Source: Acinetobacter phage AM24
Strand: one strand, 5' to 3'
Sequence record: KY000079.2
DNA length: 64,000 nucleotides
The notes below the pieces were generated by a model. The model did not search any database. It had not been told where the DNA came from and saw only the letters and a list, made by a program, of their open reading frames with translations. Every line of letters starts with the position of its first letter. Position 1 is the stretch's first letter. Positions 3,798 through 28,481 of the stretch are shown in pieces. A program made the position numbers and the translations under genes.

Positions 3798-3992
3798 ATG
3801 CTGCTGATAGACACATACACACACCCTAAAGGGATTAACCCTCCTAAACATTCCTTGTATGTTGTGCACAATGAGCGCATAATAAGGGAATATAGAAAGA
3901 TCACAACGGATACCCTTGAGGGTTTGCTTAAGGATTACCAGAACCATAGCTTGCAGATTAGTAAGAATGTTGCCAAGGCGAGGGACTTATAA
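3798..3992 (+). CDS. hypothetical protein
   Basis: 64-aa track ORF with a weak RBS. Confidence 0.3.
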   Translation: MLLIDTYTHPKGINPPKHSLYVVHNERIIREYRKITTDTLEGLLKDYQNHSLQISKNVAKARDL

Positions 3993-3993
3993 G

Positions 3994-4167
3994 ATGATTT
4001 ACACTCTAATATTAGTTATTTTTGGCACCCAAGGACAAGTGGTCGACAAGGTGGAAATGCAACGAGGCTTTGATAAGGCATCTTGTCAGACTATGGTCCT
4101 AGAAATCAACTCTCAACTAAACAAACACTCAAATGTTAAATATAAGTGCGAACTAGACAAGGATTAG
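3994..4167 (+). CDS. small protein with hydrophobic N-terminus
   Basis: Internal start of track ORF 3916..4167. The ATG at 3994 is preceded by GAGGGAC, and the N-terminus MIYTLILVIFG is hydrophobic. The longer 3916 start overlaps the previous gene in another frame. Confidence 0.3.
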   Translation: MIYTLILVIFGTQGQVVDKVEMQRGFDKASCQTMVLEINSQLNKHSNVKYKCELDKD

Positions 4168-23800: not shown

Positions 23801-23984
23801 TGATTATTTTTTAATCAATCAACACTTATTTTCACTATTTTTAAAATTATTTTTAAAATTTATTGGTTTTAGGTGTTGACATTAATAAAATATCTGGTAA
23901 TCTTAATTACATAAGCAGATTTGACATGAGATGCTTGTTTCCTTTTAGATAACCAATGACTTAAATTACCATTGGTTATCTTTT

Positions 23985-24066
23985 GTAGTAGTGCCCGAGT
24001 GGTCGAAGGGGGTGGACTGTAAATTCACTATATCACACGTTGGTTCGAATCCAACCTGCTACACCA
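23985..24066 (+). tRNA. tRNA-Tyr (anticodon GTA)
   Basis: Hand-folded cloverleaf: acceptor GTAGTAG/CTGCTAC, anticodon loop CTGTAAA, long variable arm, T-loop TTCGAAT, encoded CCA. Confidence 0.6.
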
Positions 24067-24520
24067 CAATGGTGGAAATTTTAGAGAGTGAATAACGCTG
24101 TGTGCCTATATGGTGCTACGGATACCAAGTCCAACTCTTATTCACTCTACTAAAGTTTAAGCATATTAGCGAAAGGCAAAACTCGAAAGAGATATTACGC
24201 TATGAGAAAGGGAACAATGAAATGCCGAACCTTCTCCCCTACTTGCAATGCGGTATTAGCGTCAAGTCAAAATGACAAAGTGCAAGATTGTAGACTGACT
24301 GCTAGGAAAGACTAGTAAATTTAGAGAAGTGAATGCTAAAAGCTAACCAGACCGAGAAGGGCACAAGCTGCTAGATATAAACTGGAGTTCACTTCATCTA
24401 AGTTTATGCGGAGACCTGATCGGTGTATTGAAGCAAGTGACTAGTTAAACTTGTGGATAGAGAGTGGTTTGAATCCACGTGACCCCGCTCCAAAATTTTA
24501 CTCGTTATATAGTACCTTAG

Positions 24521-24595
24521 TTCAGTGGTAGAACGCAGAACTGATAATTCTGAGGTCGATGGTTCGAAACCATCAGGTACTACCAAAATTTAATT
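24521..24595 (+). tRNA. tRNA-Ile (anticodon GAT)
   Basis: Acceptor AGTACCT/AGGTACT, D stem GTTC/GAAC, anticodon loop CTGATAA, T-loop TTCGAAA, CCA. Confidence 0.7.
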
Positions 24596-24726
24596 GAAAG
24601 ATTTATTTAAGATGTACTCTCTATTTGTCAAATTAACATCAAGTGTAATCTTACGCCACTGGTACGGCAATACCATAAGATTACATCTTAAATAGATTTT
24701 ATAGCTATTTTAAAAGTTTATTCAGG

Positions 24727-24798
24727 TCTAGTGTAGCACAACGGTAGTGCAGCAGATTGTTAATCTGTTGGTTGTTGGTTCGAATCCAGCCTCTAGAG
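24727..24798 (+). tRNA. tRNA-Asn (anticodon GTT)
   Basis: D stem GCAC/GTGC, anticodon stem GCAGA/TCTGT with loop TTGTTAA, T arm GTTGG-TTCGAAT-CCAGC. One acceptor mismatch and no encoded CCA. Confidence 0.5.
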
Positions 24799-25590
24799 CC
24801 TGAGTAAATTTTTGATGATTTGCATGAGTGTAACTGATATGGTTGTAAGTCATCAAATTAAATATTACCCTTCGGGGTATGGGTCGTGTATAACCCTTAG
24901 ATAAACTGCAAAACAGTATAAAGTCGTAACGGCAGTTATGGCGCAGAGTAAAATCTGTCAAGTACACACTCAAGGTATCATACTTATGTGGCGTAGAGCC
25001 AATCGGTGTAAACCATTTAAGTATGGGAGTGTAATGCTCCTGAGTCGATAGACAATAAGAGAACTTGAAGGTATCTAGCGAAGTTGATTGTCAAGTCAAA
25101 ACGCTGTTTACCATTGTGAGAGGTGTATAGAGTTTAACAGGTGGTGCTGAATCTCGTAGTCCTAAACCAAGTGGACAATATATGCTTGAAACATCGTGCA
25201 TGGTAAAGCACATTAGGTAGTGTGGTATTGATGGGTTCAAAAGATCTGTTAGCCACAGAGAAACCACTATCTATGCGAAAACAAATTTCAAGTTTAGGAA
25301 AAATTTAAAATTCAAAAGCGTTTCTCACGTTGGCATGAAAGGTGCTTACATAGTAATGGGTTGTCCATTTCACATTTAACCCGAAAGGTTACTTGTATTT
25401 TCATGAAAGGATTATGTTTGGTAGGCATACTAGCATAGTTTGAGTATTGGGAGAGTAATTCCAACGTCTAAGAGTGGTTAGCTATACTGACCAGCACTGA
25501 TCACTACTATATAAAGTATAGTGGATAATGAGGGAAAAATAATCCTCTCAAGGTGGTCATTTAAACGTGTAATCTCAGCGTTTTACTTGT

Positions 25591-25666
25591 GGCTCTGTAG
25601 CATAGTGGATTATGCGACTCCCTGTCTAGGAGAAAAACGCCAGTTCGAGTCTGGTCAGAGTCGCCA
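25591..25666 (+). tRNA. tRNA-Asp (anticodon GTC), tentative
   Basis: 76 nt. Acceptor GGCTCTG/CAGAGTC, D stem GCAT/ATGC, anticodon loop CTGTCTA, T arm GCCAG-TTCGAGT-CTGGT, CCA. The atypical T at position 37 lowers confidence. Confidence 0.45.
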
Positions 25667-25670
25667 ATAT

Positions 25671-25745
25671 TGTCGTATGGTGTAATGGTTAGCACAGAAG
25701 ACTTTGACTCTTCTAGTTTAGGTTCGAGTCCTAATTCGACTGCCA
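25671..25745 (+). tRNA. tRNA-Gln (anticodon TTG)
   Basis: Anticodon stem GAAGA/TCTTC with loop CTTTGAC, T arm TTAGG-TTCGAGT-CCTAA, CCA. Two acceptor mismatches. Confidence 0.5.
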
Positions 25746-25995: not shown

Positions 25996-26349
25996 ATGTC
26001 AAAAAAGTTGAAACAGTTAGGTATGAGTCCTAGTACTGCACAGGGGCGATTAGTTAAAGATCTTCTTTGGGATTTTGTGGTTCGTACTGGTCAAGATAAA
26101 TGTCATCATTGTGGTGAATTGATGTGTAGGGAGACTTTCTCTATAGAACACAAGACACCTTGGTTGGACAGTGACACACCAAAAGAAACTTATTTTGATT
26201 TAAGTAATATCAGTTTTAGTCATTTGAGTTGTAACTGTCGTGCAGCCAGAAGAGGAAAATATTCTACTGACGAAGAGCGTATTGAGGCTAGAAGAAAGTC
26301 TAATCGTGAAAGTAAACGTAGGATGAAGTTAAAAGCACAAGTAGCTTAG
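25996..26349 (+). CDS. HNH homing endonuclease
   Basis: 117 aa. RBS TGGAG. Motif CHHCGE...FSIEHKTPW (HNH with Cys ligands) and a basic C-terminal tail. Embedded in the tRNA array. Confidence 0.6.
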   Translation: MSKKLKQLGMSPSTAQGRLVKDLLWDFVVRTGQDKCHHCGELMCRETFSIEHKTPWLDSDTPKETYFDLSNISFSHLSCNCRAARRGKYSTDEERIEARRKSNRESKRRMKLKAQVA

Positions 26350-26437
26350 ATGGATTAGCGTAACCCTGAAAAGGTTGAGAGGTTGGATCGTTACCAACAT
26401 TGTGCACCAAATTTTTAAAAGAGAGATTATTTTAGGA

Positions 26438-26513
26438 TTACCATAACCTAAAGGCTCGAAGGGGCGGTCTGCAACATCGTTGTTAGTGAGTTGAAGTCTC
26501 ACATGGTAATCCA
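26438..26513 (+). tRNA. tRNA-Cys (anticodon GCA)
   Basis: Acceptor TTACCAT/ATGGTAA, anticodon stem GCGGT/ATCGT with loop CTGCAAC, T arm GTGAG-TTGAAGT-CTCAC, CCA. Confidence 0.55.
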
Positions 26514-26526
26514 AAGTGATTTTTAT

Positions 26527-26614
26527 AGAGGTTAAACCAGATAGGTTCTGGGACACCCTGCTAAGGTGATCGTGTTAGAAATAGCATTCGGATCGAGACC
26601 GATGGCCTCTGCCA
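26527..26614 (+). tRNA. tRNA-Ser (anticodon GCT)
   Basis: 88 nt, class II. Anticodon loop CTGCTAA, long variable arm, 4-bp T stem with loop ATCGAGA, acceptor AGAGGTT/GGCCTCT, CCA. Confidence 0.5.
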
Positions 26615-26619
26615 AGTTT

Positions 26620-26864: not shown

Positions 26865-27018
26865 GATTATGTTAATGGACACTTCCTAAGGTTCTTTCTA
26901 CAGGTTCGAAACTGTTTTAAGAATTGCTGGTGCTAGGTTTAGCGTCAAGAATCATTCGAAGGGTTCTTGGGGTGGTGAGTTCGATTCTCACAGTGTTCCT
27001 CCCGATTTTAAAGTTTAT

Positions 27019-27095
27019 CTCTGTGTAGCTCAGTTTGGTAGAGCACTCGCTTTGGGAGTGAGGGGTCGTAAGTTCAATTCTTACTACAGAGACCA
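27019..27095 (+). tRNA. tRNA-Pro (anticodon TGG)
   Basis: Acceptor CTCTGTG/TACAGAG, D stem GCTC/GAGC, anticodon stem CTCGC/GTGAG with loop TTTGGGA, T arm GTAAG-TTCAATT-CTTAC, CCA. Confidence 0.65.
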
Positions 27096-28305: not shown

Positions 28306-28317
28306 CTAAATTATTAT

Positions 28318-28388
28318 GGGTTGACCACTGGGTGGTGGCGAGTCTCCAAAACTTGCCTTGCTAGGTTCGATTCCTAGTCGATCTGCCA
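28318..28388 (+). tRNA. tRNA-Trp (anticodon CCA), tentative
   Basis: Anticodon stem CGAGT/ACTTG with loop CTCCAAA, T arm CTAGG-TTCGATT-CCTAG, CCA. The D arm is irregular and the acceptor has several G.U pairs. Confidence 0.45.
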
Positions 28389-28420
28389 AATAAAATGTTA
28401 AAAATAATTAAACAAAACAC

Positions 28421-28449
28421 TTGACAAATAGATTTTTAGTATTATATAT
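28421..28449 (+). promoter_or_regulatory. sigma70-like promoter followed by (TATATAA)x3
   Basis: TTGACA at 28421-28426, a 16-17-nt spacer, then TATATA. A tandem TATATAA x3 follows. Lies upstream of the last tRNA and the thioredoxin gene. Confidence 0.4.
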
Positions 28450-28481
28450 AATATATAATATATAAGCAATTAAGTTTTCAT

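Follow-up and report, generated by a model that had tools for sequence, protein, structure and literature searches.

Conserved structured RNAs, including a GOLLD RNA, in the gene-free stretches of the tRNA cluster of Acinetobacter phage AM24

What do the two gene-free stretches in the tRNA cluster of Acinetobacter phage AM24 encode? The 64,000 nucleotides (nt) of this phage that we have analysed (sequence record KY000079.2, here called the window) come from an Acinetobacter myovirus of the roughly 98-kb group, and in them ARAGORN finds 18 tRNA genes, all on the + strand, between 23985 and 28556. Two of the gaps concern us: stretch 1, between tRNA-Tyr and tRNA-Ile (24067-24510, 444 nt), and stretch 2, between tRNA-Asn and tRNA-Asp (24801-25590, 790 nt). 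An initial annotation, made from the letters alone, described both as poor in open reading frames (ORFs) and rich in hairpins, and proposed that they encode small stable RNAs. The features that it listed are all present, with minor offsets in coordinates only, and its interpretation is right in kind and wrong in detail. Both stretches encode conserved structured RNAs within the phage tRNA operon; stretch 2 is a single GOLLD RNA and stretch 1 is a mosaic of separate modules. The explanation that we favour, with a probability of about 0.8, is that the transcript of the tRNA operon carries GOLLD and a chain of structured RNA modules, that it is processed, and that the modules act in trans.

Neither stretch codes for protein. 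Each of the six frames of 24067-24510 contains 7-12 stop codons, the longest open stretch being 59 amino acids, and eight homologous regions are equally rich in stops, with no frame conserved among them. The eight longest ORFs of 24102-25685 gave no PHROG or Pfam family above noise. In place of codons we find base pairs that are kept by compensatory changes, in two modules of stretch 1 (modules B and C) and in the 5' domain of GOLLD. Two outcomes that the initial annotation had named as refuting its proposal, a lack of covariation and a conserved protein gene, are not what we see. For these comparisons we used the phages closest to AM24 over the tRNA array (Bestia, Herod, Mithridates, Ab15 and YMC13/03/R2096, at 93-98% identity) together with more distant loci. 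Homologous loci compared with the window carry L-numbers, of which L001 is Ab15 (PP763259.1), L003 Herod, L009 vB_AciJM_313 and L010 IME-Ap7.

Searches against Rfam 15, at E<=1 across 8 kb and at E<=10 across 461 nt covering stretch 1, identified stretch 2 and left stretch 1 without a match. The GOLLD model (RF02032) aligns over its entire length (1-416 of 416) to the 3' half of stretch 2, with 214.7 bits against a gathering score of 150 and E = 3e-60. The cmscan alignment preserves the bracketed long-range helix (a pseudoknot) and the multi-hairpin core, and few of its pairs are non-canonical. Homologues score 207-225 bits in Ab15, Bestia, Herod, YMC13/03/R2096 and the A. johnsonii phage vB_AciJM_313; Mithridates has none. 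The Rfam model spans only the universally conserved 3' half, and the 5' half of GOLLD, like the spacer between tRNA-Ile and tRNA-Asn, gave only noise in the search. The 5' domain (24855-25212) can be followed by comparison: the copy in vB_AciJM_313 is 70% identical across the length of the RNA, this domain included, and in its consensus fold pairing is kept through two-sided changes in 21 of 99 pairs. We place the 5' boundary at ~24855 because in Ab15 and YMC13/03/R2096, which lack the hairpin that follows tRNA-Asn in AM24, GOLLD joins tRNA-Asn directly at that point. Stretch 2 (24855-25585) is therefore one GOLLD RNA of ~730 nt showing every defining feature that can be tested, an unannotated member of a known family.

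This disposes of the idea that stretch 2 is a set of small RNAs, since its CCC-UUCG-GGG hairpin and both copies of the repeat CATGAAAGG are parts of the one molecule. The hairpin exists, as ACCC-UUCG-GGGU, ~15 nt from the position first given for it (24888). The two copies of CATGAAAGG (25334 and 25402) are there too, and their number is at the level of chance (0.86 expected, and at least two in 23 of 100 shuffles); both align to conserved positions of the GOLLD core, and we do not regard them as a meaningful repeat.

The GOLLD family is reportedly due to Weinberg et al. 2009. Like the AM24 RNA, which its Acinetobacter phage encodes between the tRNA-Asn and tRNA-Asp genes, the members of the family are borne by phages and prophages, often beside tRNA islands, with a 3' region that is conserved and a 5' region that varies (Kretsch et al. 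2025, PMC12286853). The cryo-EM structure is a D7 14-mer cage 380 Å across (Kretsch et al. 2025, PMC12286853). From its homology to the solved env-38 GOLLD, one expects the AM24 RNA to assemble by itself, with no protein, into a 14-mer nanocage. The hairpin loop at ~25478-25486 holds the palindrome AGCU (GGCC in the model consensus) and is a candidate kissing loop; it resembles the symmetric kissing loop of PMC12286853 and may correspond to it. The likeness to the family extends to the full-model match, the conserved 3' domain, the lineage-specific structured 5' domain, the phage origin and the place between tRNAs. The AM24 copy differs in being shorter, at ~730 nt, than the published 'many exceed 800 nt', in having a short A/U-rich linker that holds no tRNA, and in coming from a host clade, the Acinetobacter phages, outside the sources that gave the family its name. 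ROOL RNA (RF03087), another large phage or prophage RNA that occurs near tRNA islands and forms an RNA-only cage, has no Rfam match anywhere in the region. In vB_AciJM_313 the gap that holds GOLLD measures 986 nt, of which ~190 nt between the 3' end of GOLLD and tRNA-Pro (L009 2772-2964) are not accounted for.

For stretch 1, Rfam offers no family, the only models returned being for snoRNAs and long non-coding RNAs with E>=4, which is noise. Alignment with the relatives, and BLAST against the loci fetched, show a mosaic of conserved RNA modules that are independent pieces. Module B, a pseudoknotted RNA, occurs also in the 93-kb phage BS46, in Obolenskvirus (AP22, IME-Ap7, Abp95 and others) and in IMG/VR contigs. 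A covariance model, R1, built from eight sequence types gives its 13 true members 138-154 bits and chance matches to the pattern no more than 21 bits. In the model-based alignment 91.5% of the pair cells hold standard pairs, against 26-45% when the partners are slid by 1-3 columns, and 16 of the 31 pairs show two-sided changes. Pairing is complete (100%) in P1, in the inner part of P4 and in the four pairs of the pseudoknot, of which three covarying versions occur (GGCA/UGCC; GUCC/GGAC, with GGGC in Ab15; and GCAC/GUGC). The minimum free energy (MFE) fold of the single sequence independently gives P1, P2, P3 and P5. Module B is without a counterpart in Rfam 15.

Several further ideas about module B were examined. 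A pattern scan of 185,579 genomes gave 42 matches, all of them chance (no more than 21 bits with R1) and none from Acinetobacter; since each species is represented by a single genome in that collection, copies in prophages may have escaped the scan. A riboswitch is rejected since there is no consistent expression platform: a terminator follows only in Obolenskvirus and another RNA module elsewhere, and no Rfam riboswitch matches. The 12-mer GTCAAGTCAAAA, which the initial annotation had found in both stretches, is indeed present at 24261 and 25090, the sole two copies in 64 kb where 0.01 is expected. It does not link the stretches as a shared functional motif. In module B it makes up the 5' strand and loop of P5, in GOLLD the loop and 3' strand of another hairpin, and homologues of both replace it.

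Module C is an RNA of four helices in cloverleaf order, and a covariance model of it, R2, finds 19 copies at 62-115 bits, including some from IMG/VR and metagenome contigs (6 of the 20 matches in the metagenome scan were real). Of its pair cells 92.8% are paired, a figure that falls to 34-57% in the slid controls, and compensatory changes are seen in the stems P1, P2 and P3. The terminal stem has 6 bp (GCGGAG/CUCCGC, or GCGGAA/UUCCGC in B9), a 3-bp stem reads ACC/GGU or AUC/GAU, and a stem of 5-6 bp (CAAGU/ACUUG, UAAGU/ACUUA or CAAGC/GUUUG) is capped by the 10-nt loop GACUAGUUAA, which is partly self-complementary and invariant in all copies. The remaining helix is a further hairpin. The 3' end, U-CCA, is also invariant and follows the 6-bp stem, with its one compensatory position, in the manner of the acceptor stem, discriminator base and CCA of tRNA. 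Cloverleaf order and a 6-bp terminal stem followed by N-CCA are what module C shares with tRNA and tRNA-like RNAs (RF00005, the tRNA-like domain of tmRNA, viral tRNA-like structures and mascRNA); most copies have in addition a hairpin with a 7-nt loop like that of the T arm, and module C sits in a tRNA-type slot in the array.

It is not a tRNA, tmRNA or tRNA-Sec. ARAGORN does not call it, and the Rfam models for tRNA, tmRNA, tRNA-Sec and YrlA give no match even at E<=10 in the 461 nt. The 10-nt invariant loop stands where a tRNA would have an anticodon loop of 7 nt, containing U33 and an anticodon that can be read. The elbow of a tRNA is missing as well, the D-like stem having 3 bp and a 5-nt loop and the T-like loop reading UUUGAAU or UUAGAAU, without C56. 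The T-like hairpin is separated from the terminal stem by a linker of 2-4 nt, unlike in tRNA, and its loop is unconserved in one subtype: at L024-L026 it is GCAUA, a plain 5 nt. A further conserved non-coding module, TTTCACCCATGATCAGATTACGGTGGGTATGAAACGTGTAG-hairpin-CCATGTAAGCGAATG, adjoins module C in the 93-kb phages (L012 ~2095-2170, L006 ~2200-2275, L008 ~1360-1430 and L013 ~1580-1655); it is absent from the window.

The remaining component of stretch 1 accounts for the two similar long hairpins that first drew attention. Both are real. The arms of hairpin 1 extend over 24069-24095 and 24138-24164, with the core AGAGAGTGAATAA/TTATTCACTCT at 24083-24148; those of hairpin 2 extend over 24321-24333 and 24388-24402; and the likeness includes the flanks (repeat family D3). 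They are not stand-alone small RNAs specific to AM24, and belong instead to a stem-with-insert element that is widespread in Acinetobacter phages. Hairpin 2 is copy 2 of the element; its arms make 8 bp and, beyond an A/AU internal loop, another 4 bp, to which an A/U-rich extension is added. Copy 1, hairpin 1, is a diverged paralogue, present in Bestia and Mithridates and replaced in Ab15 and Herod; module B comes immediately after it, the same order as in Obolenskvirus. Across the relatives the arms of copy 2 stay constant and the interior is replaced, differing in each of the five closest phages and holding a tRNA-like sequence in Herod. We counted 33 distinct inserts of 26-157 nt in the loci fetched from Acinetobacter phages and prophages. 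The exact 17-mer of the 3' arm is found in 42 IMG/VR contigs, mostly Obolenskvirus-like or lambdoid prophage-like, and 36 of the 42 have the 5' arm too. Depending on the locus, the element has module B, module C or a terminator downstream of it, or else a start codon at a distance of 15-20 nt. The notion that module B lies downstream of every copy was tried and dropped, as none of 39 further viral contigs has module B.

That the arms pair is indicated by two compensatory changes at L015, covarying outer pairs (AAAU/UUUA and UAAU/UUAA) and a G-U variant at L006. The insert of copy 2 in the window shares its fold with inserts at L102, L108 and L121, and their hairpin covaries (GGCA/UGCU and GCUC/GAGU). 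The small hairpin ahead of copy 2 has a stem that covaries elsewhere (GCCC/GGGC, GCCA/UGGC, UCCC/UGAG) while the GAAAG loop is kept; a role like that of boxB in a nut site is a lead, and no boxA is seen. Y RNAs (YrlA, RF02553) are alike in architecture only, in that the two ends pair into a conserved stem, interrupted by an internal loop, on which sits a module that varies and often resembles tRNA; the insert of the AM24 type is far more variable than that of YrlA. Rfam gives no YrlA match at 24076-24406, and the only one in the window is weak (26971-27044, 22.9 bits against 69). At L094, a contig resembling a lambdoid Acinetobacter prophage, the order is a Q-like antiterminator gene, a promoter and terminator, a Pseudomonadales-1 RNA (RF03046), tRNA-Arg and the stem-with-insert element. 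The Pseudomonadales-1 RNA (3896-4063, 115.5 bits against 68) is in the leader of the late operon, ~140 nt upstream of the element. It belongs to the same type of non-coding island, differs in sequence and fold, and is absent from the window. The islands of Obolenskvirus and BS46 start with a domain closed by ATTGATCG...CGATCAAT, conserved at its ends (…GAATCTGTGGGCGACACAG … GCAACTATTCGCACGTTGCCGATCAAT) and variable in the middle (L010 ~1235-1340, L011 ~1325-1450, L007 ~2035-2160), which may be another structured module.

The modules come and go as units. In YMC13/03/R2096 the genes for tRNA-Tyr and tRNA-Ile are 3 nt apart, so stretch 1 is lacking, and GOLLD is kept; in Mithridates the reverse holds, with stretch 1 present and GOLLD absent. 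Ab15 and Herod have, in place of hairpin 1 and the 3' part of tRNA-Tyr, a segment near-identical to non-coding DNA of Obolenskvirus. The 5' two-thirds of tRNA-Tyr are intact there up to ...CACACGTTG, and then comes a segment like that of IME-Ap7 (L001 1687-1770 and L003 ~1504-1590, corresponding to L010 ~1310-1520); no tRNA-Tyr is called across the joint by ARAGORN-style annotation or Rfam. It looks like a recombination joint between genera inside a tRNA gene. Literature searches found no description of the stretch-1 modules, which a 2023 catalogue of ~10,000 candidate viral RNA structures (PMC10690425) may include; they are well-supported structured RNAs that appear not to have been described.

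The folding energies pick out the long stems of the region, which have z from -3.0 to -5.7 against shuffled sequence. For stretch 2 as a whole the MFE z is -4.39 and for stretch 1 it is -1.82, with -4.65 for hairpin 1 and -2.98 for hairpin 2. Other stems of this kind lie between the genes (Table 1), and two of them, in the tRNA-Ile/tRNA-Asn spacer and between tRNA-Asn and GOLLD, had not been singled out before. Four relatives share the tRNA-Ile/tRNA-Asn spacer, at 94-97% conservation, and YMC13/03/R2096 lacks it. The hairpin after tRNA-Asn is missing in Ab15 and YMC13/03/R2096. The tRNAs that flank every module lie on the same strand.

Table 1 Features of the AM24 window from the predicted promoter to tRNA-Asp
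Feature	Position	Strand	Details
Predicted operon promoter	23876-23903	+	-35 TTGACA 23876-23881, 16-nt spacer, TGgTAATCT (extended -10-like) 23895-23903
Leader hairpin directly upstream of tRNA-Tyr	23947-23981	+	Perfect 12-bp stem; inverted repeat I17; MFE z = -5.69
tRNA-Tyr	23985-24066	+	ARAGORN and Rfam tRNA
Stem-with-insert copy 1 (hairpin 1)	24076-24160	+	5' arm 24076-24095, 42-nt insert 24096-24137, 3' arm 24138-24160
Module B, 137-nt pseudoknotted RNA	24163-24299	+	Covariance model R1, 154 bits
Module B helix P1	24167-24171/24198-24202	+	
Module B helix P2	24182-24184/24189-24191	+	
Module B helix P3	24204-24211/24230-24236	+	
Module B helix P4	24239-24247/24281-24293	+	
Module B helix P5	24261-24264/24273-24276	+	
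Module B pseudoknot	24175-24178/24223-24226	+	GGCA with UGCC
Small hairpin ahead of copy 2	24302-24315	+	CUAG-GAAAGA-CUAG; MFE fold
Stem-with-insert copy 2 (hairpin 2)	24317-24406	+	5' arm TTAGAGAAGTGAA 24321-24333, 54-nt insert 24334-24387, 3' arm TTCACTTCATCTAAG 24388-24402, then TTTA
Module C, 89-nt cloverleaf-like (tRNA-like) RNA	24406-24494	+	Covariance model R2
Module C acceptor-like P1	24408-24413/24483-24488	+	
Module C invariant loop	24439-24448	+	GACUAGUUAA
Module C 3' UCCA	24489-24492	+	
tRNA-Ile	24511-24585	+	ARAGORN and Rfam tRNA
Long stem in tRNA-Ile/tRNA-Asn spacer	24598-24700	+	Arms ~19-23 nt, 87% complementary; inverted repeat I2; z = -3.70
tRNA-Asn	24727-24800	+	ARAGORN and Rfam tRNA
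Optional 14-bp hairpin between tRNA-Asn and GOLLD	24811-24857	+	Inverted repeat I19; z = -4.24
GOLLD variable 5' domain	24855-25212	+	UUCG hairpin 24867-24878; second 12-mer copy at 25090
GOLLD conserved 3' domain	25213-25581	+	RF02032; both CATGAAAGG copies; short A/U-rich linker ~25274-25322
tRNA-Asp	25591-25666	+	ARAGORN and Rfam tRNA

How might these RNAs be made? The sequence at 23876-23903, upstream of tRNA-Tyr, is likely to be the promoter of the tRNA/ncRNA operon. It falls within a segment (~23868-23913) that is 87-100% conserved in relatives with differing flanks, and promoters with TTGACA also precede the non-coding islands of Phab24, BS46 and B9; a consensus scan misses it because its -10 matches at only 3 of 6 positions. 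The terminator scan found no intrinsic terminator inside the array, and the equivalent Obolenskvirus island ends in a + strand terminator. All of the modules are on the strand of the tRNAs and the flanking genes, and the G-U pairs of modules B and C would become A-C mismatches on the opposite strand. From the conserved putative promoter, the lack of internal terminators, the shared strand and the G-U pairs we infer a single precursor transcript.

The region would then be the 5' part of one long tRNA-operon transcript with structured RNAs other than tRNA between the tRNAs, stretch 1 contributing, in order, copy 1 of the stem-with-insert element, module B, the GAAAG-loop hairpin with copy 2, and module C. 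The tRNAs, and module C with its tRNA-like form, could serve as punctuation at which RNase P and the tRNA 3'-end nucleases cut, and the long stems of 17-23 bp could be substrates of RNase III or protective clamps. Cleavage would yield stable RNAs, one from each module, whose ends are paired; the freed GOLLD would, by homology, assemble into its cage; and modules B and C and the inserts held by the stems would act in trans during infection as RNAs that bind protein or RNA, module C perhaps as a tRNA mimic. The modules would be exchangeable cassettes, combined differently in related phages. We consider a function in trans the most likely one for modules B and C and the inserts because the strongest constraint is on the loops and the pseudoknot and not on cleavage sites. 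A comparable case is phage T4, where two stable RNAs that are not tRNAs, species 1 and 2 (rnaD and rnaC), lie among the tRNA genes and are processed from the same precursors. The initial annotation drew this analogy; nothing points to homology, and the modules of stretch 1 are shared only among Acinetobacter phages.

The main rival to this explanation is that the stems, module C and perhaps module B work purely in cis, punctuating the precursor as sites for RNase P, RNase Z/E and RNase III and stabilising the neighbouring tRNAs or downstream mRNAs. We think this possible and on balance rather unlikely. Every spacer here that is not tRNA has a long stem (z -3 to -5.7), module C ends 15 nt upstream of the start codon of the endolysin gene in the 93-kb phages, in prophage-like contigs a start codon comes 15-20 nt after the end of the stem-with-insert element, and at L094 the element is in a late leader after the Q-like antiterminator gene, all of which would suit a role in cis. 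A pure processing signal, however, has no need of a 137-nt pseudoknotted fold, nor of a 10-nt loop that is invariant through four otherwise divergent sequence types; the contexts downstream of the modules (tRNA, mRNA, terminator or another module) are very different, and in YMC13/03/R2096 tRNA-Tyr and tRNA-Ile stand 3 nt apart without any such element. It is improbable, too, that the elements function as DNA, with the arms as recombination boundaries or as the terminal repeats that bound small mobile cassettes, whose spread homing endonucleases may have aided, and the inserts as passengers with no role as RNA. Such cassettes would explain why the arms are near-invariant across unrelated types of phage and the inserts hypervariable, and they fit the visible mosaic joints, such as the Ab15/Herod junction inside tRNA-Tyr, the HNH endonuclease gene in the array (25996-26349) and the putative replication origin that one related record annotates beside the tRNA cluster. 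They would not explain the compensatory changes in the arms (L015 and the outer pairs), the L006 variant that pairs only as + strand RNA, the asymmetric internal loop, which is unexpected for simple terminal repeats, or the covarying hairpin that the insert family of the window has of its own, and they leave modules B and C and GOLLD unaddressed.

Decay of tRNA genes would make stretch 1 neutral spacer and module C a tRNA pseudogene, a reading prompted by the T-arm-like hairpin TGGTTTGAATCCA of module C (repeat family D1) with its acceptor-like stem and CCA, by inserts that end in T-arm-like sequences, several in number, and by the varying tRNA content of the array in relatives. The pair counts of modules B and C largely refute it, and we regard it as very improbable. 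Module C has been kept, with compensatory changes and its invariant 10-nt loop, through four sequence types and 19 copies, and copies occur in Phab24, B9 and MD-2021a, phages with no tRNA at the locus; the plain 5-nt loop at L024-L026 indicates that the overall fold is conserved and not tRNA identity; and module B is unlike tRNA. Small protein-coding genes, finally, are what the automatic annotation of Ab15 proposes, with six short 'hypothetical protein' coding sequences across the region, and stretch 1 does contain ORFs of 57 and 37 amino acids. The Ab15 record, however, annotates none of the tRNAs of the region, and its short coding sequences lie over tRNAs, GOLLD and stretch 1; substitutions track base pairing and not codons; and with no frame open across the homologues and no match to a protein family, coding is for practical purposes refuted. 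The other public records leave GOLLD and the modules unannotated, and none of the GenBank records annotates GOLLD.

Some of our own observations weigh against the explanation that we favour, that is, a processed tRNA-operon transcript releasing RNAs that act in trans. A function in trans is a proposal, the cage of the AM24 RNA is expected from homology, and literature searches found no transcriptomes for these phages. Modules B and C are thermodynamically unexceptional (z about 0), so the case for their folds is one of covariation. The independent lineages are few, ~six sequence types for module B and four for module C, and the contrast with the slid controls is inflated because the structures were drawn from the same sequences. 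In the stem-with-insert element, conservation of the arms lies chiefly in the sequence and less in covariation, and recombination boundaries or recognition at the level of DNA would give the same pattern.

A bolder view goes beyond the transcript itself. Acinetobacter phages of unrelated types might share a toolkit of RNA cassettes, in which the conserved stem is a handle for a hypervariable insert and, together with modules B and C, supplies trans-acting effectors in the arms race between phage and host, as opposed to simple signals for processing. We put this forward tentatively, as something that is probably not so. The effectors could, for example, be decoys or inhibitors of defence nucleases that target tRNA, or partners or cargo of the GOLLD cage. 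Many of the at least 33 inserts are tRNA-like, and an insert in a conserved scaffold would, if the view is true, be to RNA what a diversifying domain is to proteins.

Few natural RNAs are known to form a cage free of protein, and GOLLD is among them. The copy described here belongs to phages of a clinical pathogen that can be cultured and are tractable by genetics, with close relatives lacking either GOLLD (Mithridates) or stretch 1 (YMC13/03/R2096) that offer a natural comparison resembling a knockout. Stretch 1 adds at least two RNA folds supported by covariation and one stem-with-variable-insert element, none of them in Rfam 15. These modules occur only in Acinetobacter phages and prophages, among which are several in therapeutic use or proposed for it. 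For annotation, the point is that public records leave such regions blank or fill them with spurious short coding sequences.

The array beyond tRNA-Asp has features of its own. The ORF of 117 amino acids at 25996-26349 (+) matches the HNH endonuclease family phrog_23251 (E = 3.6e-37) and has no Pfam match; it is possible that it is a homing endonuclease contributing to the mosaicism of the array. In Bestia, YMC13/03/R2096 and Ab15 a tRNA-His gene adjoins tRNA-Lys; the window has no tRNA-His. Three other spacers of 150-210 nt without tRNA lie at 26410-26619, 26865-27018 and 28307-28481. Two of the spacers have sub-threshold Rfam matches, one being the YrlA-like match given above and the other a tRNA-Sec-like match at 28317-28385 (25.7 bits), and the three may hold more tRNA-like or structured RNAs.

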